Of a stretch of 64,000 nucleotides of DNA, positions 1 through 36,599 are shown piece after piece (position 1 is the first letter of the stretch; each line of letters starts with the position of its first letter). The notes under the pieces were generated by a model. It did no database searches. It saw only the letters and a program-made list of their open reading frames with translations, and was not told where the DNA came from. Position numbers and translations under genes: made by a program. Origin of the DNA: an uncultured Erysipelotrichaceae bacterium (GTDB lineage: Bacteria; Bacillota_I; Bacilli_A; RF39; UBA660); the NCBI GenBank assembly GCA_963535465.1, contig CAUSWF010000002.1, positions 64,606-128,605 of the forward strand. Direction: 5' to 3'.

Positions 1-1943
1 GGAGAACCTACCTGTCTTACTCTTGGTATTTTATTAGGATCTGGATAAGTAGCACGAGGTCTATTTATAAAGTATTTATAAAATCCTCTATCTCTTGCCC
101 ATGTAAGCATAGATACACGAGTTGCTTCTATATTAGCTTGACAATTATAATACATTAACATTTGCATAGCTGTTTTGTAAGCAACTCTAACATCGTCAGG
201 TCTTGCTAAATAGTAGGCTACATACATTGGTTCTTGATTTCCAAAAGCTCTTTTCTTTATAGTAATACAGAATTTAGAAGGAGATTTAGTAGCTTCAGAT
301 GTTTGATCTTGTCCTATATCAATAGAGTCAATTCCAGCTACATATAAATTTTTCATTTCTTTATAAGAAATTTTATTTCCTTCTTCATCTTCTGATTGTA
401 ATAACCATAATGGTTGCTATATTATATGAACTTCGCCTGTATTAGTTGGAATAAACTAAACATCTGTAATATTATCACACATATCCTATTTTCTTCCATT
501 ATTTGTTTTAAATATAAATTTAAATTCTCCATGTTGTACTTTAGGACCTTGCTTATGTAAACGTATCTAAGCTAACTAATCTGCAAGTAAAACCTTATTA
601 AATTTATTATCTCCTTCAAGGGCAAAGGCTTCTTCAGCAGTAAAACAATACTCAGCACAGTATGTTACTAAAGCTTTAGGATCTTTATATCTGTCTCTAT
701 GTTTTTGATAATGTTCTTTAGCTTTTACTTGGTCAACAACTCCTCTAGAATCTACCATATCAGGTAAATCTAAAGCAGAATAAGATGGAATAAAAAATCC
801 AGTAAATACTTGACTTCCATCATCAGTGTAATTATGTCTATAAGGCAATACAAGATAGGATTCTGGATCATAATATATTGTTTTTAATCCATCCAAGGCC
901 GCACCCGAGTCCCCTCCAGTACCACCTGCTATAAGGATACCCATTTTATTACCTCCAACATCTACTAAAGCTTCTCCTTGAATAAAAGATTTTAGTAAAG
1001 TCGGATTAGATCCAGCTTCTTCAAACATAACAAGTTCCGCACGATCACCTCTTACTTTTGAAGGTTTATCAGCAACAATGCCTTCAATTTGAGACTTCCA
1101 TCCATCTTCTACTTTTTGTCCATTTATTATTTTATAAAAAGAGGCTCTTTTAATATCTGCCTTATCAACAACTTGTCTTAATTTAAAAAATCCTCCATCT
1201 GTTTTATCATTTAGGAAAGTTAAAGCTCCCCATACTTTCTCTAGAGTTTTTTCTAATTTACCAGAATCAAAAGCAGTAATCATAGTAATACTATCTCTAT
1301 AACAAGAGTACTCATTAGCACATACAGATGCTAATATTTCCGAAAAACCTACAGCACGGCTTTTCATCATACATATATTTCTTCTTAATAATTTACATAA
1401 TTCTAAATAATGAAAGAACTCATACTAACATACCATAAACCGTGGAAATATATTTTTACGTGCTGTACCAGCTTTTTCTACTCTAGAATTTTTAAGTTGA
1501 TAGTAATTTAAAAAGAAATAATTACATCCTGTAATAGTATAACCATTAACAGTCATTCCATTACGGCATCTTTTATATTCTTGATTCCAGAAATCTCTGT
1601 ATAATTTAGATCCAAATTGATATTGACAATAATGTCCTGTCTTTTCAAAATTATCTCTTGCTTCTGTAAACCATGAAGGATTAAAATCGAGACCGTGTAT
1701 TGCATCTATTGGTTTATATCCACATATTTCGTAGGATTGTGTTCTATCAAAAAAAGATATAGTCTAACTAATTGGGTAATCCCATTCAAAATTAGTTCTG
1801 ACTATATCTTTCTCTATATCCTAAATAAATTCCTTTTCTTCCTTAGCTTCGGCCTGTTTTGTAGCATCTATAATAGACTAAACCTCATCAGGAAGTTTAA
1901 TTTTTCTAGGACGACCTCTTTTACGTTTTTTAATTTCTTCCAT
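1..1943 (-). CDS. terL: Terminase large subunit, C-terminal end runs off the window start; TAG read as sense
   Basis: ATG at 1943-1941. The frame stays open to base 1 only if nine in-frame TAGs are read through (plus-strand cta at 1878, 1821, 1764, 1425, 576, 567, 486, 456, 417). ORF-track fragment 576..1370 plus the flanks give FLNYYQL, MFEEAGSNP, ILIAGGTGGDSG, AGIDSID and NIEAT, which are TerL ATPase/nuclease-type motifs. Confidence 0.85.
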
Positions 1944-2530
1944 TACATATCTGTTGGTAAGAATCCATCAGTAGCACCTGCTCTAATTGCTGAGGCTTCT
2001 TGTTGCTCTTTTTGAACTTGCTGTTCTAATATTTTTAATTCATCATTTACTTTAGATATCTAAGACATTTCTTTCATAATATCAGAAACTTTATAAATAG
2101 GTTTACCTGTCTAATCATCAACTTCCATAGGATTAACAGTTTCAAAGTAAATAATAAATTTATCAACAGCCATCTAAGCAGCTTTAAGCATACGTATAGT
2201 ACGATTAGATTCTTGTATTTCTTTATATTTTCTACAAGCAGCTCTAAAAGTAGGATCATTCCATTCTTCTTCTGAAAGTCCTGCATCTTTTAAAGCTTCT
2301 TGGTGTCTATCTTGTTCTGTGTAATCTTTATAAAAAGATTCCCAGTCTATAGCTAAGTATATATATGTAAATTCTCGGTAAGCTCTTAAATGTTTCTTAC
2401 CTGTTTTATCTTCAGTGCAAACATTTCTCTTATCATCCATTAAAGCAGCAAATTCTCTAATTAAAAGAATTTGCCCTTTTTCCAATTCTACCTAACCACT
2501 TGCATTATTGTACTGAAAAATATGTAACAT
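1943..2530 (-). CDS. Hypothetical late protein (195 aa), recoded
   Basis: ATG 2530-2528, TAA 1945-1943 overlapping the terL ATG. Four in-frame TAGs (2492, 2174, 2111, 2060). It contains ORF-track piece 2174..2485. Confidence 0.6.
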
Positions 2531-2535
2531 TATAA

Positions 2536-3855
2536 TTATTTATTTAAATGAAGAATGCTTCTAAGTTTAACAAAATCAATATTACCTCCATTAAGACATT
2601 TCTTCATCTTTCCACCTTTTTTATCTTCTCTTACTTCAAACTGTGCTTTAGTTTTAGAAGATTGACTATTAAATTTTTTAATTAATCCTTGAAGTTCTTG
2701 TTCTTCCGCTGGAGTAAGTTTACCTTTAGCTCTTTTAGAAGTAAGTTGATACTGACGTGCATTATCTTGTTTAGTATAAGTAGGAACAACTTTTACATTA
2801 GAATTACCTGTACGCATATTTGAAACTGTAGAAGAAATTGCTTTTTTCTTAGTTTTATCTGCTGGCATTTCCATACCTTCTTCAGCAGTTCTCATTCCAC
2901 GACAAGCAGAGCATATACGACCTCCTGCTTTAAAATAATATTTATAAGTACCTTCAGGACATTCCCCTTTAATTTGTTTAATATAGTTTAATTTAGCACC
3001 AAGCTTTGCCATCTAGGTCTGTTTATTAGCTTCTTCTTGAAGATATTGTTGAAACTATTTCCAAGATTCTTCATTTGGTTGTAAATTATTAGCTTTACAA
3101 AATTCTGCAAAAGCTCTTTTAATTTCTTCGTTTTGGTCTAATTGACCTCCATTCTAATATTTCATACTATCGTTATTATAATCAAGTCTAATTCTACGTC
3201 TATCTCTAGCTCCAATATGCCCTTTAATACCTGTAGCTGCAAGATATTTTTCCCAATCTTCATCTTTACTAACATCTAATCCTCTATTTTTTAATTTAAT
3301 AGCTAAATCATTAATAAATAAATCTTTCCCCGGATTTATTAATGCGTTTCTAAATTGATCTATATTTTGTATACCATTATATCCTCTATCCATTAAAGAT
3401 CCAGATTGATTACGTAATCCTTGTCTTACAATAGCTCTATTTACTTGATTAAGTCTTGGCTATACATTTTTTCCAATTTCTGGTGTATAATTGTACACAT
3501 TAGGAGTAGTATTAAAAGAATGGTTTTCAAATTGTTCAGGAGTAGTTTTATCACCGTATCTAAATGTTTTAGCCATATTTAAAGCATTAGCTGTTTCATT
3601 TCCCCATAAACCATCTTCTTTAATATAACCTACTTCATTTCCATACATAGCATTGTACCATTTCTAAAAAGCAAGGGCATTATCAAAACCATGAGATTCT
3701 ACTCCATTATTATCCCATGTAATATTATTTAAATCTGGATTAGCATTAGCAAAAGCTTGAGCATATCCTAAACCATTATAACGACCTCTTTTAACTATTG
3801 CATTATCTTGTTTATATCTATACTAATCCCACTTTTGTACTGGTTTTTTTATCAT
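2536..3855 (-). CDS. Hypothetical virion/cell-wall-associated protein (439 aa), recoded
   Basis: ATG 3855-3853 to TAA 2538-2536. It joins track ORFs 3460..3648, 3154..3393 and 2536..3012 in one frame through six TAGs (3823, 3664, 3460, 3154, 3055, 3013). DGLWGNETANAL resembles a peptidoglycan-binding repeat. Confidence 0.6.
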
Positions 3856-4076
3856 AGTTTAATTAAATCCTTAGTATTAAAAATTGCTTCCTATAATTTA
3901 TTATCTGTTGAGAACCATCTACATTTAATTCCTCGAAGAATTGGTTCTTTATCAGCATTTAGATGCTTGAATATTGTTGTTTCTTTCTTTATTACCAGCA
4001 TAGTAGGTTTATTAGGAATATCCTATTTAAGCGTTACTATATCTCCAGGCATAAAGTATATTTTATCATTTATCAT
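3852..4076 (-). CDS. Small DUF2158/YodC-like protein (74 aa), recoded
   Basis: ATG 4076-4074, TGA 3854-3852 (ATGA overlap with the next gene). Two in-frame TAGs. GDIVTLK(TAG)D...TMLV...IKCRWF resembles the GDxVxLKSGGPxMTV...CxWF pattern recalled from memory. Confidence 0.45.
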
Positions 4077-4662
4077 TATTATTAAATCTTTCTGTTAGTC
4101 CAGAGTTAAAAATAGCTATAAGACTATGTTCATTAACAAGAACAAAACCTTTACGATAAAATGGTATTATAGTTTCAGATGGTTTACGCCACATTACTAT
4201 ATCACCTACTTTAGTATAAGTGCATTTAGTTCCTACTTCCATAACTTTTCCTACTTTAATAAATGGATCTTCTTCATGCATAGCACCATCTTCTCTACTT
4301 TTATAAATAGGTGCTTTACCTCCAAGATCAACAATTAAACCATCAACTTTTTTAATTCGTTGAAAAGGATTAACTACAAAAGGAGAAATAATTATGCCTT
4401 CGTAAAGAGGTTTCATTTCTAAAGTATCTAGGTTAATGTCTTTACTATAATCTGTTAATTGTTTGTTATAATTATCTAAATTAGATAAATATTCATTTAC
4501 ATCTTCTTTATGCTTATTTTCTTTTTCTATAACAAGATCATCTATTGTTTGATCTTTATTTACTATGAAACTTTTAGAATCTTCTGAACTTACTTTGATT
4601 GCTACTTTTTCTTTATTAGACGGAGTAGTATTAACGTCTCTTCCATTAATTGTTCTTATCAT
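4066..4662 (-). CDS. Hypothetical protein, C-terminal half possibly GroES/Cpn10-like fold
   Basis: Intact ORF-track ORF. KPLYEGIII...GKVMEVG...KVGDIVMW loosely resembles the Cpn10 pattern. Weak. Confidence 0.4.
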   Translation of the reverse strand: MIRTINGRDVNTTPSNKEKVAIKVSSEDSKSFIVNKDQTIDDLVIEKENKHKEDVNEYLSNLDNYNKQLTDYSKDINLDTLEMKPLYEGIIISPFVVNPFQRIKKVDGLIVDLGGKAPIYKSREDGAMHEEDPFIKVGKVMEVGTKCTYTKVGDIVMWRKPSETIIPFYRKGFVLVNEHSLIAIFNSGLTERFNNNDK

Positions 4663-4663
4663 A

Positions 4664-4903
4664 TTACCATTTATTACTAGGACATTTTTCTTCTTTTACA
4701 GAAGTTTTTAAATTGATAAAACATCCACATAGACCACATATTTTTTGATTATCTATTACCTCTAAATATTTACATCTATTACAATACTTTAATCTATTAA
4801 AAGAAAGCTCTTTATTTTTTCCAATAGTATAATTGAATAAACCTTTTATTATATGTTTAATTTTCGTTGGAAAATTCTCCATAATATTTTTTAGCTGCTT
4901 CAT
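4664..4903 (-). CDS. Small Cys-rich (zinc-ribbon-like) protein
   Basis: ORF-track ORF with CNRC...CGLCGC...CPSNKW. Paralogous to 5474..5740. Confidence 0.5.
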   Translation of the reverse strand: MKQLKNIMENFPTKIKHIIKGLFNYTIGKNKELSFNRLKYCNRCKYLEVIDNQKICGLCGCFINLKTSVKEEKCPSNKW

Positions 4904-5480
4904 TCCTAGCTTTAACAGCTTCTTCTAATGTATCATAACGTCCAATATATTTAGTTTTATTATTTAATGTAATTTGGGCAGTCCACTTATTTTTATCTTT
5001 TGAAAAATATACACCTTTATGTCCAGATGTATTATTTTTTGGGACAGTACAATTACATAAATTTTGTTGGTTTGTACAAATTCTTAGATTGCATTTTCTA
5101 TTATCTAACCCATTATGATTGATATGATCTATCAATATTTTTGGATCAGTAATATTTAAAATATACCTATGCAATCTTCTAAATTGTTTATTATTAGAAG
5201 TACAATAATATGTATTTCTTTGCAGATCTGATTTATGCCATCTTATAGCTTTTACTTTTTCTATATCTTCTATATCTATTAAAGCTTTTCCACATATTTC
5301 ATTATCCCTATTTATTAAAAATATTTCAGCATGATCGTCAACTATTTCTATATGGTTTGTTTTATCTTTATACGAATATTTAAAAATTTTTCCGTATCTT
5401 CTTATTTGTGTATAATGTTTAGAACATAATCCATTAGCACAAACTTTTTTACCACATCCTTCAATTTTACATATTACCAT
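4857..5480 (-). CDS. HNH homing endonuclease with C-terminal AP2 DNA-binding domain
   Basis: DHINHNGLDNRKCNLRICTNQQN (HNH) followed by SGHKGVYFSKDKNKWTAQI...GRYDTLEEAVKARNEAAKKYYGEF (AP2). Confidence 0.8.
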   Translation of the reverse strand: MVICKIEGCGKKVCANGLCSKHYTQIRRYGKIFKYSYKDKTNHIEIVDDHAEIFLINRDNEICGKALIDIEDIEKVKAIRWHKSDLQRNTYYCTSNNKQFRRLHRYILNITDPKILIDHINHNGLDNRKCNLRICTNQQNLCNCTVPKNNTSGHKGVYFSKDKNKWTAQITLNNKTKYIGRYDTLEEAVKARNEAAKKYYGEFSNEN

Positions 5481-5776: not shown

Positions 5777-7693
5777 TTAATATTCTATCGGTTTAAGTTT
5801 GGCTAATTTTTCTTGTTTAAAAACAGACTTTTTATAAAATTTTAGCATTGATTCTACTTCTTTCTTTAAATAAGGTAAATGATAAACTGTTTGATTATCA
5901 TTATGATCAAAGTGTACTAATATTAAATCTTTAATAGTATATTCTGGATTAATTTTTTGTAACATCCATGCATAAGTAGATAACTGTAAAGCATAATGCC
6001 AGTAATTGCAATCTTCCAAAGTGTTCAATGGATACTTCATTTTAACAGAACTACGAGTTTTAGTATCAAAGCCACTATGTTGTTTGATTTCTTTATTAGT
6101 ATTATGTGTAATTATACATTTATTAGTAACTAAAAAAGTATGTAAAGGGCTGTCTACTTCTAAACATTGTGTTGGAATAGTTTCTGTAATTTCTACTTTA
6201 TTAATATTTCTAAATGAATTTTTATCTATTTTTGGAAATTCAATTTCTTGATTTCTTATTAAAAAAGGATTTAATCCATTAGTTGAGAAACATACATCCC
6301 AAGCAATAAATTCTTTACCATTACATTTTTTTATTACTTCAAAAACAGTAGATTTTATACCTAATGTTCCTAATAATTTTACAGTACAATCTCTTTGCCA
6401 TTCTTGGCCCGTAGACATTACAAAACGTTTTCTTTTAGGATGATAATAACCATCAGTATCCATTAATCCTCTTAATAAGTCTAATCTTTGATTAAATGAA
6501 GCTGTATAATACTCTTCTGGAATATGTTTATTTTTTAAAAGATTCATTTTATTTAATAAAGTTCTTAATCCATAAACAGTCCTCATTTCAGTATTTTCTC
6601 TATCAGGATTATGTTGGGCATTTTCCCCTATATCAAAGCCACGATGTTTTAGTTCATCCCATAATTTAGATTGACTTGCTTGCGTAATAATACCACAATC
6701 TTTTGAACCATCACCTAACCAAACTCCTAATAAATAAGGATCTATTAGTAAATCTTTAGTTGGAGTATTAATAGGTTTTGGATTTAGTATTTTAGGAATT
6801 GTATAAGAATTTCTAGTATAAGTTTGCATATAATTATAAAGTTCCTTTGTAGTTATTACTCCTTTAGTATAAGGTGTTTTTTTACTTTGATTTTTAAATG
6901 ATACTTCCCAACGGTGATCTTCATCAGCTACTATAGTGTCTCCGTTATCAAAAGTTATTTTGAAGCATGGATTATTATGTATAGATGATTTATGCAAAAT
7001 TCGTGTAGGATTACCGTCTCCATCAAAAATAACATCCCCTTCTTTTACAGCTCCTATAGTAGTCCATCCAGAATTTGTTAATATTTCTGTGTCTAAAGGT
7101 AATCCTTTCCAATCCATGACTGTTATTTCATTACCTTGTTTAACTAATAAATCAATCTGTCCTGCAATTCTTAGCATGTTATCAGGAGAAGTACGAGAAA
7201 TTAAGTATTCAGGATATACTCCATTTTCTAAATCTAACGCAGTTCTTCCTTTATCGCATATAAATTTACCTCCTACACCAAATTTCTTTAGTGATACATT
7301 AGCACCCATCTTATACATACTTTGCTCTAGATCTGAATGTATTTTAGTACCTCTTTCACAAGATTCTCTATTAGTTTTATCCCATTCATCTAAAATACCT
7401 TGTTGTGCTTTATTAAAATCAAGTTCAGTAATATCATACGTACTTAAAAGTTCTTTAGGTATTTTGTGTGTATTCAACAAAGATTTTCTTTCTATTTTCC
7501 AAGCATCTGAGGGAATTAACTTTTCTAATGCCTTATATCCAGACCAAAAATCTTTATCAAAGGGTTGAGCAAACTTTTCTATTAAAGTTGTTACTGAAAT
7601 AAATCTATCATTTGTATCTGTATTCCAGTATACATGGTCATTTTCACTGAATGCAATGCTTCCATTCTGTTTGTCTATTTTCATATTATTCAT
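5777..7693 (-). CDS. PD-(D/E)XK (RecB/Cas4-like) nuclease interrupted by an intein
   Basis: Extein motifs are ERGTKIHSDLE, GQIDLL...VMDWK|..|TNK (D-x-K-T restored on splicing) and YALQLSTYAWML (QxxxY). Residues 197-531 are intein-like. Confidence 0.8.
   Translation of the reverse strand: MNNMKIDKQNGSIAFSENDHVYWNTDTNDRFISVTTLIEKFAQPFDKDFWSGYKALEKLIPSDAWKIERKSLLNTHKIPKELLSTYDITELDFNKAQQGILDEWDKTNRESCERGTKIHSDLEQSMYKMGANVSLKKFGVGGKFICDKGRTALDLENGVYPEYLISRTSPDNMLRIAGQIDLLVKQGNEITVMDWKGLPLDTEILTNSGWTTIGAVKEGDVIFDGDGNPTRILHKSSIHNNPCFKITFDNGDTIVADEDHRWEVSFKNQSKKTPYTKGVITTKELYNYMQTYTRNSYTIPKILNPKPINTPTKDLLIDPYLLGVWLGDGSKDCGIITQASQSKLWDELKHRGFDIGENAQHNPDRENTEMRTVYGLRTLLNKMNLLKNKHIPEEYYTASFNQRLDLLRGLMDTDGYYHPKRKRFVMSTGQEWQRDCTVKLLGTLGIKSTVFEVIKKCNGKEFIAWDVCFSTNGLNPFLIRNQEIEFPKIDKNSFRNINKVEITETIPTQCLEVDSPLHTFLVTNKCIITHNTNKEIKQHSGFDTKTRSSVKMKYPLNTLEDCNYWHYALQLSTYAWMLQKINPEYTIKDLILVHFDHNDNQTVYHLPYLKKEVESMLKFYKKSVFKQEKLAKLKPIEY
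6101..7105 (-). mobile_element. Intein (335 aa) with LAGLIDADG homing-endonuclease domain; class-3-like WCT signature
   Basis: Block A is GLPLDTEILT (Gly, not Cys/Ser, at position 1). Block B is TIVADEDHRW (W two residues after His). LAGLIDADG motifs are LLGVWLGDGS and LLRGLMDTDGYY. Block F is TQCLEVDSPLHTFLV (Cys where Asp is usual). Block G is IITHN followed by Thr+1. Confidence 0.75.
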
Positions 7694-8378
7694 TTACATA
7701 TTTTTTTATATTATTATAATCTAGTATTGCTGCTAACTTAGAAATTTCTGGACCTATAACTACTGGATAATAAGGCATCTTATACTCTTTCTTCTTTTTA
7801 TAAAGTATTATTATTAATCCAATAGGACTATTACTTCCTGCTATAGGATAAAAAGCAGCAGCTCTAGCATTACTTGCTAAAAGTTTATTGTAAAATTTTG
7901 GCATAGAATATTTAATAGAATCTATATTATTTACTCTTAATAGAGAGTAATTATTTATTTTCTATAACTCATCTATATAATAAACATATTCAAGTTCATG
8001 CCATTCTCTTTTTGTTTCTTGCGAATCTATGCCTCTAGTCTTCTCAGTAAGGCAATTTAAATACTAGTAACTAAAACCTTGTAAACTTCTAGTTGAATTA
8101 TGATAACTTAAAAGTATTACATTTGTAGCATCAGGATCTTTATCAAGTATTGCCTAAACACTTCTATCTATTTCTGGAGCCATTTTAAGAGTATACTTTT
8201 CAGCTTCCTACTTATCATTCTCCATAGATTCAGCCCATTGTTTAATGCTGTTTTTGTTTTCAGAAATTATATAATTTCCGAGGCACCATCCTAATAATCC
8301 AATTATAATTACAGTTTTTGTTTGTGTGCCCAAACTATCTAAAAATTCCCAAATCTTTTTTATTAATTTTAATTTCAT
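7686..8378 (-). CDS. Membrane-anchored hypothetical protein (230 aa), recoded
   Basis: ATG 8378-8376. N-terminal TM segment TVIIIGLLGWCLGNYII. Five in-frame TAGs join it to track ORF 7686..7904. Confidence 0.55.
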
Positions 8379-8560
8379 TAAATTTTTAATTAATACTTTT
8401 TATTAAGCTTTTACTTCCTTTCAAATCTTTACGCAAATCTTAATTCTAAATATAATAAATAAACTTACTAAATTTTGAACTAAACAAATTTAATAATATT
8501 TTTACAGTAATCAAATTTAGAGATATAAATTATAACAATTTTTATAAATACGTTTATAAT
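8379..8560. promoter_or_regulatory. Divergent intergenic region between the two recoded late blocks (putative late promoters)
   Basis: 182 nt of AT-rich non-coding sequence between ATG 8378 (minus) and ATG 8561 (plus). No specific promoter motif identified. Confidence 0.35.
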
Positions 8561-9331
8561 ATGGCAGTAAATAATAGTATTTACAATAACAAAAATCCTA
8601 ATATTAAATATAATATTTAGAATTTATTTACTACGGCTAAAATTGCTTCTTTATTAAAGAAAGGAGGTAATGTACATAGAACAGATATATTTCCAGGGGT
8701 TATAGATACTAATGCTAATTTTGATAATATGAGTCCTAGGAAAAAAAGAAAAAAGATTAAAAAACATCAAGATGGAGGAGAAATAGAAGTGGTTGAATAT
8801 AATCCTGTAGTATTATCTTTAAAAAAATTAGATTATCCAGAACTAAATAATATTAATACTAAAACTTTAGATATATCTGGATTATCTTTTGATAAATTTA
8901 CTCCACCTTCTATAAATAATATGCGCGTATAGGAAAATTATCCTATAAATCCAAATATTAGTTTAGAAGATTTATTAAAACAAGAAGGAGTAAATGCAAA
9001 AGTTTCTTCTGGTTATAGAAAGGGAGCAATATCAAAAAATGGACATAAAAGTAATCATAGTCATTTAAATTCTGATGGAACTCCAGGAGCTTATGATATA
9101 GTTCCTAATGATGGTAACTTTGAAAATCTTAGAAAGGAGATATATGGTAATCCACGTATAGTTGCATGGCTTAAAGCTAAAGGTTGGGGTATTTTAGAAG
9201 AAACTACTCCTAATATTATGAGAAAAACTGGAGCTACAGGTAAACATTGGCATTTTGGTCCTGATACTGCAGCCTTAGATATGTCTAGATAGAATGGAAT
9301 TAATTATACTAAATTAGGAGGTTTATTATGA
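8561..9331 (+). CDS. Peptidase M15 (VanY / L-Ala-D-Glu peptidase)-like cell-wall hydrolase, recoded
   Basis: ATG 8561, TGA 9329-9331. Three in-frame TAGs (8618, 8930, 9293). SSGYRKG...SNHSH...GAYDIV...GKHWHF matches the SxHxxGxAxD...HxH zinc-peptidase pattern. Confidence 0.6.
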
Positions 9332-10470
9332 TAGAAACTACAAAATATGATAATATAGATCAGTAGTTTGAATATCCAGATTTACCAAGTATTAATAATT
9401 CTAATAATACTATAATAGCAGATGAGGCTACTGAAAATTATCTTAGGGCTGTTCAAAATGAATATGCTTTAAAGGCTTAGAGAGATAAAGAATTATGGGA
9501 ACAACAATAGAACGTTAAAAATAATTAGCCTAATTAGTAGTATTCATTTACAGATAATAATATACCTCAAATAAGTAGTTCTAATAAACAAGGATCTTAG
9601 AAAGTAAAAGAAATACTTGATAATATGATACATGATCCTACTAAAAAAACTATATTGTTAAAAATTGCAGAAAAAGAATCTAATTTTAAAATAGATGCTA
9701 AAAATGCTAAAAGTTCTGCTAGCGGTTTATTTGGATTTTTAAATTCAACTAAACAAAAATATGGTTATGGTAATACTGCTGAATAGTAGATTTAGGGAGC
9801 ATCTAAATTATATGATGCTCATGCTACTTAGTTATAGTAGTATATAAATAAATATGGAACTAGAGGTAAATCAATAACTTAGTTAATGTATGGTATGTGG
9901 TTTAGACCTACTTCTTTACTTCATTATTTACAAACAGGTCAAGATGATTATAAAGATGCACAAGGAACTAGTTTAGAAAAAATATTTGCAAAAATGGCTA
10001 AAAATGGAGGAATATTAAAAGCATAGGATGGAATAATAATTCCAAAAGCTCCTAATACATTTAGATAGTATGGAATAGATCCTAATAAGTTTGTTAATAT
10101 GTGGAACGGACTTGTTAATAAAGGAATATCTCCACAAGTAGCATTTGATGCTACATGGCAAGCTAATAAAGAAGTTCCTAAAGGATATTATTCATATGGA
10201 AAAAAGAAACCTAATCTCAATAGTTGGGTAGAAGCTGCTTCAGATAGTTTAACCACAGGAGCATATAAAAAAGCAAAGAATGCTTAGAATTTTGATTAGT
10301 ATAGATAGGCTACTTTTAAATATAATAAAAATCCAGAATATACTAATTGGTTAAAAACTAATAGATAGGATGCTGTTAATTTTATAAACAGATATAGACA
10401 ACAAAACGGAATAGTAGGTAAACCTATAGCTTAGCTTATCCCAGTAACTTAGATAATTAATAACGTATGA
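9328..10470 (+). CDS. Lytic transglycosylase (SLT)-domain protein, recoded
   Basis: GGAGG precedes ATG 9328; TGA at 10468-10470. I counted 22 in-frame TAGs, including TAG-TAG doublets. IAEKESNF...SSASGLFGFLNST resembles the SLT catalytic ES...GLMQ region. Confidence 0.6.
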
Positions 10471-10745
10471 TAAAGAATTTTATAAAAAGTATGTTACTAG
10501 CTACTCAAGGATCTATAAGTTCTAAAAGAGTTTGTGGAGTTCTTGGTTGGTTAGTATGTTTAGGTATTTGTATTTACTGTACAGTTGGTTAGATACAAGC
10601 TCCTATACTAGCAGACAGTGTTCTTATAGGTAGCGCAGCATTAATGGGCGTAGATAGTGTTACAGGTATATGGAAAAATAAAAGAGATATAAATATTATA
10701 AAAGAAAATGAAACTAATGTAGAACAAAATAATAGTTTAGTATAA
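10467..10745 (+). CDS. Holin-like small membrane protein (92 aa), recoded
   Basis: ATGA overlap with the upstream gene. Two hydrophobic segments (VCGVLGWLVCLGICIYC, ILADSVLIGSAALMGV). One in-frame TAG, TAA stop. Confidence 0.5.
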
Positions 10746-10750
10746 TAAAT

Positions 10751-13183
10751 ATGACTCAAATAAAATTTGATAAATCTAAAAAATATTATGATAGTAAATT
10801 AAATAAATACTATGGTTAGGGTATTTGGTTTAAGGATACTAATGATGATGGTAAATATAATGAAGGAGAATCTTTAATTCCTATGGGAAATAGAATTAAA
10901 AATTCTAATAATTCTTATGTACAATTAAATTCTGATGGAAGTAGAACTTTATTATATTCTAAAGGTAAATTTACTAATACTAATATTTCAAATGTAGATA
11001 AATAGGCTATATCTAAAGGATTAATATATGGACGCAATGCTTCTTTACAAAATAATAAATATGTAAGATCTAATAATGGCATAAGTAATTGGGATATAGA
11101 TACAGTTAGACAAAAAAATAAAGATGGAAGTTATACAGATATTAATAATAATACATCTTTTATATATAATAAAAATAAATATATTGGAACAGCTGGCAGT
11201 AAAAATGTAATAGATTTATATCATAACGTAGTAAGTAATGATGGAGGTAAAACTTGGTCTAGAAATTCTACAACTCAAAAATCTGTAAGTCCTTTTATTA
11301 CAAGACGCTATGGTACATAGCCTTTAGGTTAGTATTTAAATCCAGATACTAATATTAAAACAAATTATGCTGAAGTTAATTTTGGAGATACTAATGGTTA
11401 GAATCAATATTTAAAAAATAATTATTGGGTATATGATGATGGTAATGGTAATGTTCAAACTATCGGATTTAGGTATAAAGATGGTAAAGATTATGCGTTT
11501 TTATCAGACGATAATAATTTTTTAAATGATAATGTTTCTGGTATTTTAAAATCTAAATAGAGTATAGGTTCATCTAAACTTAAATCTTATAGTGCTGGTT
11601 TTACTCCAGGTATGGAAAAATGGAGAGGAAAAGGTGGATGGTATACAAATGTAGGATAGGATCTCCCCGATATAGTATACGGTGCTAAAGATGGTTATTT
11701 ATATAATAAACAAGGATAGCAAATAGGATTTAATGCAAATGGTACTTATTATTTAAAAAATAATATTATTGCTTCTGAAGAAAAACCTACATTTAAGAAT
11801 ACTTTAGTAAATGGGTGGTCTGGCTTAGTACAAGACTTTAGTAATTTAAGTTCTAGATTTGATCCTTCTAATAATTAGGGTTTCCAAAATAGATTTACTG
11901 GAATATTTGGAGATTTAGGTAGAGGAATACAGCATGCTGCATAGGGTACTGTAGGGGCATTAGCTACTGCTATTATTCCAGATAGTTTGAATGAAACCAT
12001 AGGTAAGTATGGTTAGATTACCGATATAGGAAAAGATTTAAGAAGTATAACTAGTTTATTTGGTAATGGGAAATTTGTTACACCTTGGGATTAGGATAAC
12101 CATGGCCTTGTTGATTACGCAGATATAATTGGCAACAAACAAGGTCTTCAAGATATAAACGATGCATTAAATGGAGCAACTGTTTTAATCGGAACTAAAG
12201 GATTAGGCACAACAAAAGAAGTTTTAAAAGGAACACTGCAGGGAACAAAAGCTATGAGGTTTACTGAAGCTGCTCTTAAAGGAGCAAAAAATACTTCTAA
12301 AAATATATATTCAAATGGAGCATATTATACAGGAAAAGCAGGATTACGTCCAAGTAATATTACTCCTATGATTAATGCTGTTAAACAAGGTTTTAAAAAT
12401 GCACGTACTTATTATGAAGAATCTGCTCCAGTAGTAACAAAACCAACAATAGTTGAGTCTAAACCAGTAACAGCAGGTACAAAATAGTATATACAACCTA
12501 CAATAAAAAAACTTAATCCAAATAAAGGTGCTGAAGTAGTATATAATATGAAATTTAATCCTGTTTAGGAAGCTTAGAATATAATGGCTAAACCTAAATT
12601 TATATTTAAAGAAAATTCTATAGTACATGTTCCTAAAGGATTACCTGTAAAAGTAGAATAGCCTGTACTAACATAGCAACCTGTTGTTAAACCGTCTGTA
12701 CAAAAAATTCCTAAAACTGCACCTAAACAATTAACTTTAGAGTTTGTGGAAGATAAACCTAAATATGTACAACCTATATTAAAACAGCTTAATGATGCTA
12801 AAAAAGCTGAAATTGCAAGTAAAATAGTTCCTATAGATTATGCAAATGTAGCACATACTATAATGTAGTCTAAACCTACTATATAGCTTCCAGAATTTAG
12901 ATTTTCTTCTAAATTTAATCCTGTTTCTGAAGCTAAAGCTAGAACAGTTAGTAATACTTCAAATGTAGGAAATATTCCTAATAAAAATATTAAGTATGTA
13001 GAAAGTCAACCTACAGTTAATAATTCTAAAATACTACAGTGGAAGCAAGCTAAAGAAATTAAAGCAGTACCTAAAACAATGAAACCTAAAAGTAAAAGTA
13101 AAATATTGAAAAAAGTAAATAAAAAATATTTAGGTGGAATTTTAAATAATAAATTTAATAATTGGATAAATGCAAATAACTAA
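10751..13183 (+). CDS. Large virion/tail-associated hypothetical protein (810 aa), recoded
   Basis: One frame is open from ATG 10751 to TAA 13181-13183 with 19 in-frame TAGs. It contains track ORF 12254..12487. C-terminal internal repeat: Y(I/V)QPxxKxLN...KFNPV(TAG/S)EA occurs twice. Confidence 0.55.
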
Positions 13184-13697
13184 TTTTATAAAATATATAT
13201 AGAGTTGGGAAGGAGGTTATGCTAATATACCTCAAGATAGTGGAGGTCCTACTAATAAAGGAATTACCCTAACTACTTTCCGATCTATATTTGGGCAAAA
13301 CAAAACAATAGATGATTTAAAGAAAATGACAGATGAGCAATGGTGGAAAGTATTTAAAACTAAATTTTGGGATAAATACAAAGCAGATAATATTAAAGAT
13401 GAATGGTTAAGATATTTATTAGTAGACTGGTTATGGTGTTCTGGTCAATGGGCTATTACTAAAGTTTAGAAATTACTGGGATTAAATCCAGATGGAATTG
13501 TCGGAGACAGAACTATAACAGCTATTAATAGTAAAAATCCTAAACAATTATTTGATACTATTTGGAAGATGAGAGAAAAATTCCTTCAAGATATTTCTAA
13601 AGGTAAGAATAGTATATTTTTAAAAGGATGGCTTAGACGTCTTAATGGGCTTAAATATGGTTATTTAGTAACTAGTAATAATAAAATATTAAAATGA
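13170..13697 (+). CDS. GH108-family N-acetylmuramidase with PG_binding_3-like C-terminus (endolysin), recoded
   Basis: WEGGYANIPQDSGGPTNKGIT is the GH108 signature, and LLGLNPDGIVGDRT is PG-binding-like. In-frame TAGs at 13200 and 13467. TGA at 13695-13697 overlaps the next ATG. Confidence 0.75.
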
Positions 13698-13924
13698 GTT
13701 TTATAACAAATTTTAAAGAATCCAATAGGTATAAACACTTTTGGTGTGCTATACCTATTGGATTAATTTTTACTATACTTTGTGTTATTGGGTGTGCAGG
13801 AGGTATGGAATTTAAAGATAAACAATATAGTAATTATTGGGATTGGAAAGATTTTGGATTTACTGTATTAGGAGGATTTGTCGGACAGATATTATAGATT
13901 ATATTAATATTAATTTTATTATAA
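13694..13924 (+). CDS. Small membrane protein (76 aa), lysis-cassette partner, recoded
   Basis: Hydrophobic segments WCAIPIGLIFTILCVIGCAGG and GFTVLGGFVGQIL(TAG)IILILILL. TAG at 13895, TAA at 13922. Confidence 0.5.
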
Positions 13925-15273
13925 TGCCAAAACCTTTTGATTTAGATTTACATAAAAGTTATAATGTAAATAATAAAAGTAAAAATTATAAGTCCTTTAC
14001 TGGGGCTAATGGAGAATTATGGTATACTGATAGACCTTTAATTACTTATAATAATAGTAAATTAGCTTATGTAACTAACGGAAGAAATGCTAGATGGGTT
14101 ACTGTTGGAAATGAATTTAATACTTAGCCTTAGATGTTATCTAGAGAACAAGCTGTAAAACGAGATCTTAATAAACCTAGAATACAAGCAGCTAATGATT
14201 TAACTTAGGGTTTAACTGATCTTATTACAGGAGGAATGGCTGGATCATTAAGAGAAGGGGCTTAGAATCTTACTAAAGGTAATTATATTAAGGGTATTTC
14301 ATAGTTAGCTACACCTGCCATGTTTGGATCTGGAATTGCAGGAAATATAGCAAGAGCAGGTGTCGGATCTTATAATTTATTAAATGAAGATAGAGTTAGA
14401 AAAACATATAAATATATTAATAATAAGGAATATGGGAATGCTGCTGTTTCTGGATTAGGAGATATTTTAAATGGAGGTATGGCTATACATGGTGGTACTT
14501 AGTTATTTAAAAACTACAGAATAGTTGAACCTAAATTATTAAGTGCTAATTTAAATAATAAAAATATGCCATATTACTCTTAGTTTGAATAGTAGGAAGC
14601 ATAGCAACATATGATATCTGATATAAAAAGAGGTTATTAGAATTTTAAAGATTGGATGACGAATCCTCATTATTTAGAATCTACTTTAGACAACATGGAA
14701 GAAGCTAAAAGAATGGGTTTAAAATATACACCTACTTATGATAAACCTCATTATAAAGCACTAATGTAGAACGGTATTAAAATTAATTTTAAGAAATAGA
14801 TGCAGGGTAATGGTGCTACTAGTTAGTTTGGTGCATAGGCCGGACATCCTGCTGAAGTTGATTTAAATTTAGGATCACCACAATCATTTTTTAATACTGT
14901 AAGACATGAATCTGGGCATGCTGCTTATCATGGTAATGGGTTAACTCCAGATGAACTTAAATATTTAAGATTTAAAACTCATTAGGCTTTTATAGATAAG
15001 GCTGAGGCTGGTCCTTATGATTTTCATTAGTAGACTGGTGAAGCTGCTATGAACGGTAGAGATTTAGGACATGATTTAGGAATATCTGTAGGACAATCTT
15101 ATCCAGGATATTAGAAAGCTTTAGAAACATTAAATTCAGGACTAGGCAAATCTACAAAAGATGGAATGATTAAATTATTTAAAACAGATGAACAATCTAT
15201 GCCTTATGTATGGAAATTACTTAATGGTACTTTACTAGGAGGAGCTTTAGTAACTAAATTTAATAATAAATGA
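13924..15273 (+). CDS. HExxH zinc-metallopeptidase-motif protein (449 aa), recoded
   Basis: ATG 13924 overlaps the upstream TAA. 19 in-frame TAGs, TGA at 15271-15273. Contains VRHESGHAAYHG. It joins track ORFs 13837..14127 and 14320..14502. Confidence 0.55.
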
Positions 15274-15780: not shown

Positions 15781-15782
15781 AG

Positions 15783-15870
15783 TTGCCTCGCTAGGATTCG
15801 AACCCAGATTGACGCCCTCAGAAGGCTACAGATTTAGAGTCTGCCGTAATAACCATTATACTACAAGGCA
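15783..15870 (-). tRNA. Suppressor tRNA, anticodon CUA (reads TAG), 88 nt with long variable arm (type II architecture)
   Basis: Reverse complement: TGCCTTG TA GTATAATGGTTATTAC G GCAGA CTCTAAA TCTGT AGCCTTCTGAGGGCGTCAAT CTGGG TTCGAAT CCTAG CGAGGCA A. It has a 7-bp acceptor stem (U1-A72), a 7-nt loop with C34 U35 A36, and A73. Confidence 0.85.
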
Positions 15871-15876
15871 TTAAAG

Positions 15877-15948
15877 TTATCCCACTAGGATTCGAACCCA
15901 GACTAAGAGGGTTAGAGCCTCCTGTGCTAGCCGTTACACCATAGGACA
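15877..15948 (-). tRNA. Suppressor tRNA, anticodon CUA (reads TAG), 72 nt, tRNA-Gln-like
   Basis: Reverse complement: TGTCCTA TG GTGTAACGGCTAGCAC A GGAGG CTCTAAC CCTCT TAGT CTGGG TTCGAAT CCTAG TGGGATA A. U1-A72 is present, and the D arm is nearly identical to the phage tRNA-Gln(UUG) at 31788..31858. Confidence 0.85.
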
Positions 15949-25267: not shown

Positions 25268-25353
25268 GGAGATTTAAGCCTAATTGGTAAGGCAGCAGTT
25301 TGCTAAACTGCCAGTAATCGTAGTAATATGATGTATAGGTCCTATAATCTCCA
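25268..25353 (+). tRNA. Aberrant tRNA-like element (Ser-GCU-like) lacking a canonical T arm
   Basis: Perfect acceptor GGAGATT/AATCTCC. D arm GCC TAATTGGTAA GGC. Anticodon arm GCAGT TTGCTAA ACTGC. Extra arm ATCGTA-GTAA-TATGAT. The T arm is replaced by the mini-hairpin tATAGGTCCTATa. Confidence 0.45.
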
Positions 25354-29580: not shown

Positions 29581-29718
29581 ATGGAAAAAATAATTCATCT
29601 ATATATAATTAATGAATGTGGTAAGAAATGCCCAATGTGTTGTAATAAGTTTTATAATATGGTTAAACTCCCCAGGGACTACAACCGGAATATTTCCGGA
29701 CACGGTCGCTTAGTGTGA
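29581..29718 (+). pseudogene. Truncated ORF with a CxxxCxxC (radical-SAM-like) N-terminus running into structured non-coding sequence
   Basis: MEKIIHLYIINECGKKCPMCCNKFYNM.... From about 29662 the reading frame enters G+C-richer hairpin sequence and stops at 29716-18. Confidence 0.3.
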
Positions 29719-30127
29719 ACGACAGCACGTTTAATATTTTGCAGTGTGAAGAATGAGTGATTTAATTAACCTTTCTAAGTTGAGGATATAATTTAGTTGC
29801 TCGAATACCCAGAGAACGCGTAAAACAGGGACTTTTGTATAGTTAAGTATAAAAACTATATAAGCAATATTGTATTTGCTATTAGCAATATTGTGATTAC
29901 TCTACCTACTGAGTAAGGGTCTATGTAATTATAGGCTAGGAGTGTAGGGAATAGTGGGTACAGCCTAAATTACATTATAGGAACTTCTGTACGGCGAAAC
30001 TAGAGGATGATTACTATGGATATGCGATTACATATCTAATCTGGTTGAATATTAATGTTAGTAGAGCATATATTAATTCTTTAAAAGAACAGCTACCTCT
30101 ACTTAGGATTAATCCTGTTCTTTATTT
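29662..30127 (+). ncRNA. About 470-nt structured non-coding RNA candidate abutting tRNA-Glu
   Basis: No ORF of 60 aa or more on either strand between 29541 and 30304. Hairpins include ccggaa-tat-ttccgg (29685-99), gtcg..cgac (29705-23), a roughly 60-nt imperfect hairpin at 29921-29980, and a duplicated AGCAATATTGT. Confidence 0.45.
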
Positions 30128-35201: not shown

Positions 35202-35275
35202 CTCTCCTTAGCTCAACTGCAAAGAGCAACTTTCTTCTAAAAAGTGGGTTACAAGTTGGAATCTTGTAGGAGAGA
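35202..35275 (+). tRNA. tRNA-Arg (UCU)
   Basis: Perfect acceptor CTCTCCT/AGGAGAG. D arm GCTC AACTGCAAA GAGC. Anticodon arm ACTTT CTTCTAA AAAGT. T arm ACAAG TTGGAAT CTTGT. Confidence 0.8.
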
Positions 35276-35512
35276 CTAATTAGTACTTTATTTAATATGT
35301 TTAATATATTATTTTTTTATATTCTGTTATTTCTTTGTAGGATTTATATTGTCTCTTCCTTATATATACCTTACTGATAAATATTGTAAACTAAGTAAAT
35401 ATCGTATAGAAAATTTACCTTCATTTTTACTTATTTTATTTATCTGGCCCATATGTTGGACATTTATTCCTGTAATTATATTATTAATAATTCAACATAA
35501 AATTAAAAATTC

Positions 35513-35923: not shown

Positions 35924-35950
35924 ATAGGTGGAAATATTCCACCTATTTTT
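35924..35950 (+). terminator. Intrinsic terminator
   Basis: ataggtgg-aaatatt-ccacctat, followed by TTTTT. Confidence 0.65.
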
Positions 35951-35954
35951 ATTT

Positions 35955-36273
35955 GGGGCTGTTTGGTTTTGATTGTATAAGGAAGTAAAAATAACATGCA
36001 AAGACTGATGGAAAGACATCAATTCAAATTAAATGCTAAGGTTATTCCTATGAACAGCTTTGCTGTTCGCATTGCAGCTTAATGACTGCCGAGCTGGTAA
36101 CTTGCTTAGGAACAGAAAAGTTACAAATTTATAATTAAGTTATCCCTTCTTTAAAAAGGAAATTTTCATATTGCTAAATAATATAAAGATGATGTAACAT
36201 CTATAAAAAACTAAGCATGTAAAATTATTTGAGGTATTTATACAAGACGAGAGTTCGAATCTCTCCAGCTCCA
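35955..36273 (+). ncRNA. ssrA: tmRNA (SsrA), phage-encoded
   Basis: The 5' GGGGCTG pairs with the 3' CAGCTCC, followed by A. T arm GAGAG TTCGAAT CTCTC. The conserved ACTAAGCATGTA element is present. The tag frame 36035-36082 ends GCAGCTTAATGACTGCC, as in the E. coli GCAGCUUAAUAACCUGC, and the predicted tag is AKVIPMNSFAVRIAA. Confidence 0.85.
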
Positions 36274-36374
36274 CTTTAGTTGGCTACTGACTACAAAATA
36301 GTAGATGACTTCTAGGGCCGTTCAACATGTAAACAACCTAGGTAATGGCATACCTGTTAAAATCAAAGCATGCT

Positions 36375-36406
36375 AAGGGTACTCATAAGAGTGCCCTTTA
36401 TTTTTT
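36375..36406 (+). terminator. Intrinsic terminator downstream of tmRNA
   Basis: aagggtactc-ataa-gagtgccctt, followed by a T-run. Confidence 0.7.
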
Positions 36407-36599
36407 ATATAAATCTAAAATAAATAAAGATAAAATTAGTAAATTAATATATGGAAGAATTAATAAGAGAATATGTCATTCCTATAAAACCTGTAGAAAT
36501 GATTGATTGTAGTTATCTACCCAACAAAAAGAGTAAATCACGTGCAGGGTCAACACCCTACGCAAGTAAGAGGAAAAATAAACATAAAAAGTAAATAGT

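Follow-up and report, generated by a model that had tools for sequence, protein, structure and literature searches.

A phage-encoded, structurally intact transfer-messenger RNA (tmRNA, SsrA) gene lies in the 64,000-nucleotide (nt) stretch of contig CAUSWF010000002.1 analysed here, hereafter the window. As far as sequence and conservation allow a judgement, this gene probably yields a functional tmRNA and belongs to a module by which the phage supports translation in general, with no specific tie to stop-codon recoding. The window itself fits a large Zeta-like member of the crAss-like phages, a group that ranks with the commonest viruses in the human gut. Many crAss-like phages, the large Zeta-type ones included, carry such a ribosome-rescue RNA with a tag of its own, which extends their translation toolkit beyond tRNAs and suppressors.

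The hallmarks of SsrA on which the original prediction was based (acceptor, T-arm, conserved element and tag frame) are all present in the sequence, and two of the checks it proposed, ARAGORN and the Rfam tmRNA covariance model, both call a tmRNA at this position (Table 1). ARAGORN reports a gene of 320 nt, the coding part of which (gene positions 81-131) specifies the tag AKVIPMNSFAVRIAA followed by TAA TGA. Rfam family RF00023 matches from 35955 to 36276 along its full length (model positions 1-374), with 72.8 bits (E 2.2e-26) against a gathering score of 47 bits. The acceptor is tRNA-Ala-like in its 7-bp stem, its G3·U70 pair and its discriminator A; CCA is not encoded, the discriminator being followed by CUU. 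Helix 2 is paired in each of its parts and includes the GCAUGUA strand, and the conserved element CUAAGCAUGUA is present. The tag frame reads GCU AAG ... GCA GCU UAA UGA, so that the resume codon is a sense codon with no AUG and the tag ends in IAA (hydrophobic-Ala-Ala); both stop codons fall within the loop closed by a GCAG/CUGC helix (helix 5). The domain that comprises the second to fourth pseudoknots (PK2-PK4) is short, about 118 nt between helix 5 and helix 2 (to about 36205), and beyond the PK2-position stem it holds only simple hairpins. A by-eye search for pairing between the PK2 loop and downstream sequence gave nothing consistent across the family described below, and the remainder of the domain is the most variable part among close relatives. 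The gene has a GC content of 32%.

Evidence that this RNA is maintained comes from its close relatives. Since blastn of the window tmRNA against GenBank phages returned no match, it should be said that relatives were reached through a neighbouring protein and DNA patterns, with an nhmmer profile and Rfam added to ARAGORN; L-numbers (L001, L031, L072, L144, L161 and so on) are labels for homologous or related loci compared with the window. Four further viral contigs carry a tmRNA 93-95% identical to that of the window, and the tag is the same in all five although other parts differ by 5-6%. Substitutions in the T-arm are compensatory (GCGAG/CUCGC in L031, ACGGG/CCCGU in L037 and L080), and H2a contains a pair that varies between U-A, U·G and C-G across the window-type members, other differences being clustered in the PK3/PK4 region. 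Covariation extends to the wider family, assessed on 51 unique intron-less sequences. The acceptor occurs there in four variants, all fully paired and with G3·U invariant, and the T-arm is canonical at every position in 51/51 sequences, with up to four pair types per position. H2c shows GC-to-UA and AU-to-GC exchanges, and the stem at the PK2 position shows CG-to-AU, UG/UA/CG and UA-to-GU exchanges, both again canonical in all 51. The sequence of the hairpin at the position of the first pseudoknot (PK1) was the bait that gathered the family, so covariation of that hairpin is not assessable in this set. The compensatory T-arm and H2a changes in the 93-95% identical relatives, the family covariation and the invariant G3·U together argue for selection on the structure.

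Pattern scans placed the gene in a broad lineage of homologous tmRNAs found on more than 100 viral contigs, approximately 60 of Steigviridae size and 40 of Zeta size. A scan with the 5' 21 nt of the window gene yielded two 97-kb contigs with a GC-richer tmRNA that scores 90-91 bits in Rfam and is missed by ARAGORN. This tmRNA matches three GenBank Steigviridae crAssphages, namely cr106_1, Kehishuvirus 'tikkala' and cr128_1. A 27-nt degenerate pattern of the PK1 hairpin, which the window matches exactly, was found on 63 viral contigs, mostly of 90-102 kb. A second pattern, which joined the resume-codon context to the Ala-Ala-stop end, was found on 54 contigs, many of 140-192 kb; each of the 11 Zeta-size loci sampled from this second scan reaches the Rfam cut-off (49.8-99.2 bits), and all lie inside tRNA arrays. 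A search of 185,579 species genomes of bacteria and archaea with the PK1 pattern gave hits in no more than two contigs, both from metagenome-assembled genomes, which argues that the lineage is phage-restricted and not a recent capture from a sequenced bacterium. Taken with the 63 and 54 viral contigs and the Rfam support at all 11 sampled loci, this small number also points to long residence in phages. The window shares the 27-nt pattern, the upstream tRNA-Arg(UCU), the VRIAA tag end and the crAss-like terminase with this lineage, whose L161-type and L072-type tmRNAs have almost no matches in GenBank phages.

The tag of the window had been described as unlike those of the ANDENYALAA/GENNYALAA type. 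It is indeed longer and differs from ...YALAA, but its VRIAA end is typical of the phage tmRNA family and thus not peculiar to this genome. Tags in the family are 8-17 residues long, their frame is kept by whole-codon changes, synonymous variants occur, and TA[AG]NT precedes the resume codon in all members; the kept frame, the synonymous variants, this context and the conserved C-terminus argue for selection on the tag as coding sequence. Most tags end in [KR]-[MIVA]-A-A or in L-A-A (...YRVAA, ...YRAAA, ...VRMAA, ...YRMAA and ...VRLAA, with a few ...ALAA or ...LLAA), and TAA is the tag stop throughout. Because its VRIAA end conforms to this pattern, and because its AKVI.M start recurs in the L072-type tag AKVINMKPQATVMLLAA, the tag of the window is, to judge from the sequences compared, a trait of the lineage and not a single-genome oddity. 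Ends such as ...VRMAA, ...YRVAA and ...VRIAA are concrete peptides whose presence in metaproteomes of the gut could serve as a marker of trans-translation directed by phages.

The surroundings of the gene suggest that it belongs to a module. In 48 of the 63 tmRNA loci, the window included, the nearest upstream tRNA on the same strand is tRNA-Arg(UCU or CCU), AGA accounts for 57% of the Arg codons in the open reading frames (ORFs) of the window, and the gene is bracketed by terminator-like hairpins, a consensus scan having found 3 terminator-like sites where 0.4 were expected. In the mechanism proposed, RNase P would presumably cut the precursor at G1, its 3' end would be processed too, and the host CCA-adding enzyme would supply the CCA, since none is encoded. 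The RNA would be charged with alanine by the host alanyl-tRNA synthetase via the G3·U pair and delivered with host EF-Tu and host SmpB, the latter presumed because the window encodes no SmpB of its own. It would enter stalled ribosomes, where translation would resume at GCU, the peptide (A)AKVIPMNSFAVRIAA would be appended and the ribosome would be freed at UAA. The hydrophobic-Ala-Ala end would most likely still target the product to host proteases that recognize C-terminal degrons. Such a module of tRNA-Arg(UCU) and tmRNA, set in a tRNA-rich region and long carried by crAss-like phages, may serve to keep ribosomes free during expression of a phage genome very rich in AT and rich in AGA codons, at a time when the host RNA supply falls; buffering of amber read-through would be at most an added benefit in recoded members.

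Table 1. Position, strand and basis of the tmRNA gene, its structural elements and other features of the window.
Feature	Position	Strand	Basis or remark
tmRNA (ssrA-like) gene, short form	35955..36274	+	ARAGORN, Rfam RF00023
Acceptor stem, 5' strand GGGGCUG	35955..35961	+	Pairs with 36266-36272 CAGCUCC; G3·U; discriminator A36273
Helix 2, 5' strand	35973..35999	+	Pairs with 36215-36245
H2a	35973..35980	+	Paired in window
H2c	35990..35994	+	Paired in window
H2d, CAUGC	35995..35999	+	Paired in window
Hairpin at PK1 position, UGAUG-GAAAGA-CAUCA, 5 bp	36006..36021	+	Rfam alignment
Tag reading frame: resume codon GCU, 15 codons (AKVIPMNSFAVRIAA), TAA TGA	36035..36085	+	Upstream context UAAAU
Conserved stem-loop at PK2 position, GUAACUU ... 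AAGUUAC	36097..36124	+	Family covariation
T-arm GAGAG-UUCGAAU-CUCUC	36249..36265	+	Compensatory variants in relatives
tRNA-Arg(UCU)	35202..35276	+	ARAGORN; 679 nt upstream of tmRNA
Terminator-like hairpin and T-run abutting the tmRNA 5' end	35924..35954	+	Consensus scan; conserved with a wobble change in L031, L037
3' trailer of about 100 nt with terminator-like hairpin (36375-36398) and T-run	36275..36408	+	About 95% identical in L031, L037
Two tRNA-CUA amber suppressors	15782..15948	-	ARAGORN, Rfam
Late-gene block with TAG recoding (four ORFs, with 3, 22, 20 and 19 TAGs in frame)	8459..15273	+	ORF analysis, TAG read as sense

Several observations weigh against a working tmRNA in such a module. 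The original prediction was to stand or fall with the folding of the pseudoknot domains and with the integrity of the resume codon and tag frame. The latter are intact and the Rfam match is full length, but a by-eye search of the window and the family gave no consistent candidate for the second PK1 stem, and the shortened PK2-PK4 domain aligns poorly, with low posterior probability in the Rfam alignment. No SmpB gene was found in the 64-kb window by tblastn with E. coli SmpB (best E 2.8), so that function would depend on compatibility with the SmpB of the host. Of about 68 syntenic loci in relatives with the same neighbouring 184-aa gene, no more than 5 have a tmRNA, so that it is dispensable in many of them. 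In Kehishuvirus 'tikkala' (L083, OQ198717.1), a cultured phage of Bacteroides cellulosilyticus, the tmRNA at about 3992-4297 is 97.6% identical to that of cr106_1, with a last stretch of about 14 nt that differs and leaves T-stem and acceptor unable to close; loss of the tmRNA would thus seem to be tolerated in culture. The region is annotated in this genome as two hypothetical proteins. Finally, the tag carries Arg at -4 and, instead of Leu, Ile at -3, which could weaken or alter recognition by proteases.

In one alternative reading, an ancient, phage-restricted tmRNA lineage is coupled to tRNA-Arg(AGA/AGG), the tag end reprograms the fate of rescued chains relative to ...YALAA (through protease targeting or kinetics), and in recoded members the RNA also absorbs stalling due to amber suppression. 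We consider this extended version unlikely as a whole.

The window does contain a recoded region, as had been claimed of the genome. Two tRNA-CUA genes and a set of read-through ORFs bear out that TAG is suppressed, but the recoding is confined to the late-gene block, and the tmRNA neighbourhood is in the standard code. Three adjacent forward-strand ORFs between 9313 and 15273 are open for 385-816 codons only when 19-22 in-frame TAGs are read through in each; smaller recoded ORFs (2536-3858 and 7686-8399 on the reverse strand, 8459-9331 on the forward strand) contain 3-6 TAGs, and one read-through ORF matches transglycosylase families. Both tRNA-CUA genes look Gln-like, with U1-A72 as in the phage's own tRNA-Gln, and in one of them, 89 nt long, the variable region contains an additional stem-loop (about 16 nt).

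The co-occurrence of suppressors and a tmRNA had been singled out as the interesting link. Taken as the explanation, it would mean that the tmRNA is carried specifically for the load that amber suppression creates, either through read-through into 3' untranslated regions or through disturbed decoding of UAG, and relieves the non-stop or stalled ribosomes that result. The same tRNA-CUA pair does accompany the tmRNA in the relative L144, tmRNA and CUA suppressors share a contig in at least two lineages (the window type, with L144, and the L161/L287 type), and tmRNA has been reported to act at UAG codons in recoded E. coli (PMC6207430). The tag frame of the window, moreover, closes with TAA TGA, two stops that are not open to suppression, but because TAA is the rule across the family this stop is not an adaptation to recoding. 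Against the proposal, the same tmRNA family is present in cr106_1, a complete standard-code genome with its long genes intact and no suppressor tRNA. Counts of suppressor and tmRNA co-occurrence, which rest on partial contigs, run the same way. No suppressor was found among 338 tRNAs at 59 Steigviridae-type tmRNA loci (536 kb), and at 55 loci from the resume-context scan (548 kb, 274 tRNAs; about 40 phage-type, many of Zeta size) CUA suppressors occur in one locus only, making one locus with suppressors among 114 tmRNA loci flanked by 612 tRNAs. Conversely, among 120 loci fetched through a CUA anticodon arm a tmRNA lies nearby in only one, and 118 are without a detectable tmRNA in the sequence examined; of the listed suppressor contigs only two also came up in the resume-context scan, and one more in that for the PK1 pattern. 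The phage also makes little use of TAG as a stop: in the standard-code part of the window only 4 of 59 ORFs end in TAG, each with a TAA or TGA back-up within 0-20 codons. A test of recoding by the rise in ORF coverage once TAG or TGA counts as a sense codon was dropped as uninformative, as every locus gains.

In these partial contigs, then, at least two lineages do pair tmRNA with suppressors and tmRNAs are common without them; some statistical enrichment may exist, but the co-occurrence is not supported as the explanation. Recoding is clearly not required for carrying a tmRNA, buffering during amber suppression is a possible contributory role in recoded members, and amber-suppressor load as the specific reason for carriage is quite improbable. 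The presence of a tmRNA should accordingly not be taken as a signature of stop-codon reassignment.

Competition with the host tmRNA has also to be considered. Here the exchange of A-L-A-A for [KR]-[MIV]-A-A would allow tagged products to evade or redirect host proteases or adaptors, or the phage RNA would blunt a response that senses trans-translation. A basic residue at -4 and M, I, V or A at -3 recur in both crAss-like groups, unlike the GENNYALAA tag of L001 and L009 (for which Bacteroidota origin is assumed), the tmRNA family is phage-restricted, and a tmRNA-like RNA of a mycobacteriophage has been reported to inhibit the endogenous tmRNA (PMC11915505). Set against this, the terminal Ala-Ala and a hydrophobic -3 residue are retained in the tags. 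Together, Ala-Ala and a hydrophobic residue at -3 form the core of the degron known from work on E. coli ClpX. The tags of some family members simply have ALAA or LLAA at the end, and no phage protease or adaptor partner was identified, and we regard competition of this sort as decidedly doubtful. That the gene is instead a decaying, non-functional copy, whether an integration-site remnant in host ssrA or a captured host gene being lost, is scarcely credible: presence is patchy among close relatives, the 3' end is broken in 'tikkala', and the last 29 nt are identical to the tmRNA 3' ends of L001 and L009 and to a 3'-end-only copy in L008, perhaps an attachment site, but the gene is complete and retains every tRNA-like identity element, its T-arm and H2a substitutions are compensatory, its tag is identical in five contigs that differ by 5-6% elsewhere, and none of the neighbouring genes scanned encodes an integrase, on which grounds the integration-site remnant was rejected.

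The nearest annotated counterpart is crAssphage cr106_1 (NC_055871.1, Mahstovirus faecalis, Steigviridae), in which positions 29657-29960 are annotated in RefSeq as 'transfer-messenger RNA, SsrA'. Its tmRNA shares with that of the window a homologous 5' domain, the 27-nt degenerate pattern with an identical hairpin stem (differing at both R positions), a tRNA-Arg immediately upstream and a short form of about 300-320 nt. It differs in acceptor (GGGGCAU against GGGGCUG) and in tag, which has 8 residues (DNTYRVAA) against 15 and ends in R-V-A-A against R-I-A-A, and it is too diverged for blastn to connect the two. Unlike the phage of the window, cr106_1 has a genome of about 100 kb, uses the standard code and lacks a suppressor tRNA. 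Purine-rich repeats that flank the 5' strand of the PK1 stem change together across the 63 contigs of the PK1 scan, being AAAGAC...AAAGAC or AGAGAC...AGAGAC and never mixed (63/63). The change affects tmRNA positions 47 and 59 (36001 and 36013 in the window), both states occur within the DNTYRVAA tag group, and no pairing partner was found.

In the third Steigviridae genome, crAssphage cr128_1 (L084, NC_055885.1), a group I intron (86 bits in Rfam) splits the tmRNA at about 3993-5312, directly behind base two of the T-loop. The intron holds an endonuclease gene on the opposite strand, and RefSeq does not annotate the tmRNA. In IMG/VR, six loci carry tmRNA genes of 1206-1318 nt, the same length as that of cr128_1. 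T-loop introns at a subsite confined to Bacteroidia have been reported (PMC11915505).

Zeta-size tmRNAs, such as those of L072 (AKVINMKPQATVMLLAA), L161 (ATTSVRMAA) and L279 (ATYSEVRMAA), lie in tRNA arrays on contigs of 140-192 kb, all reach the Rfam cut-off, and most of the contigs are without a suppressor tRNA in the sequence examined. The tags of L161, L279 and most of the set end in VR[MI]AA, and that of L072 in LLAA. Their genes are longer than that of the window (370-580 nt), with fuller pseudoknot domains and another hairpin sequence at the same PK1 position, as seen in L072 and L161. The L072-type tmRNA scores 49.4 bits, barely at the Rfam cut-off, and has an unusual T-loop without UUC (GUGGG-GGCGGAA-CCCAC, 5320-5345 in L072). 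In L161, a 174-kb phage contig, the tmRNA is preceded, at a distance of 500 nt, by a match to the Hatchet ribozyme (13016-13099; 81.8 bits, cut-off 51).

Bacteroidota-type SsrA (GENNYALAA, 399 nt) is represented here by the ARAGORN-called tmRNAs of L001 and L009, which are viral-collection contigs taken, by assumption only, for prophage or host sequence from Bacteroidota. The window tmRNA resembles these in overall architecture, in its 3' 29 nt (T-arm and acceptor strand, identical), in the lack of an encoded CCA and in having TAA in the helix 5 loop. It differs in being 80 nt shorter, with a reduced PK2-PK4 domain, a hairpin only at PK1 and a 15-residue VRIAA tag against YALAA. Since the closest relatives of the window do not share the 29-nt identity, it is attributed to convergence on a tRNA-Ala-like arm, and its use as a clue to the host was rejected.

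Phage-borne tmRNAs as such are already known. Huge phages carry tmRNA genes among their translation genes, and some also encode SmpB (Al-Shayeb et al., 2020, PMC7162821); mycobacteriophages carry tmRNA genes too, the form in DS6A being without a tag frame (PMC11915505). In both cases the RNA has been proposed to sustain or monitor translation (PMC7162821, PMC11915505). These are unrelated phage groups, and the window differs from some of them in encoding no SmpB and from DS6A in having an intact tag frame. A full-text literature search returned no discussion of tmRNAs in crAss-like phages, a 2025 paper on Zeta crAss-like phages being silent on tmRNA, and it appears that neither the breadth and tag ends of the family nor its linkage to tRNA-Arg and its T-loop introns have been described. 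Annotation practice is relevant here. ARAGORN under-called the related loci, missing L076 and L078; it called a tmRNA in 15 of the 55 resume-context loci, mostly with bacterial-style tags, and in none of the 11 Zeta-size loci at the Rfam cut-off did it report the locus's own tag (for L309 it gave another peptide). Since ARAGORN is standard in phage annotation, pipelines based on it will under-report phage tmRNAs.

The assignment of the window to a crAss-like phage, also made in the original prediction, is upheld by the large terminase gene (1-1967, reverse strand), which runs off the low-coordinate end of the window and matches phrog_6681 and crAss-like phages. In tblastn its closest matches, at 45-50% identity, are unannotated human-faecal phage scaffolds, and identity to Crassvirales terminases is about 28%. 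A large 'Zeta' crAss-like group has been described (PMC7886860, PMC12386605), and the placement of the window as Zeta-like follows from its close relatives on 161-166 kb contigs, its GC content of 27%, its many tRNAs and its rich set of replication and nucleotide-metabolism genes. In the closest GenBank relative, MT835470.1 (117 kb, probably partial), no tRNA or tmRNA was found, and it therefore says nothing on whether recoded genomes do without a tmRNA.

Some smaller features of the neighbourhood remain to be mentioned. The segment downstream of the tmRNA (36275-36408) may be a 3' trailer removed in processing or a small RNA in its own right, with a fold z-score of only -1.9. A neighbouring gene with an OmpA domain is a weak hint of a diderm host. 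A 47-codon ORF, MEELIREYVIPIKPVEMIDCSYLPNKKSKSRAGSTPYASKRKNKHKK, at 36451-36594 has no Pfam match; dozens of related loci share it at 80-97% DNA identity, which exceeds the conservation of the neighbouring 184-aa gene. The sequence at 25268-25353 is called a tRNA by Rfam (42 bits) and is not reported by ARAGORN; with its GCU anticodon loop and long variable arm it is probably a tRNA-Ser.

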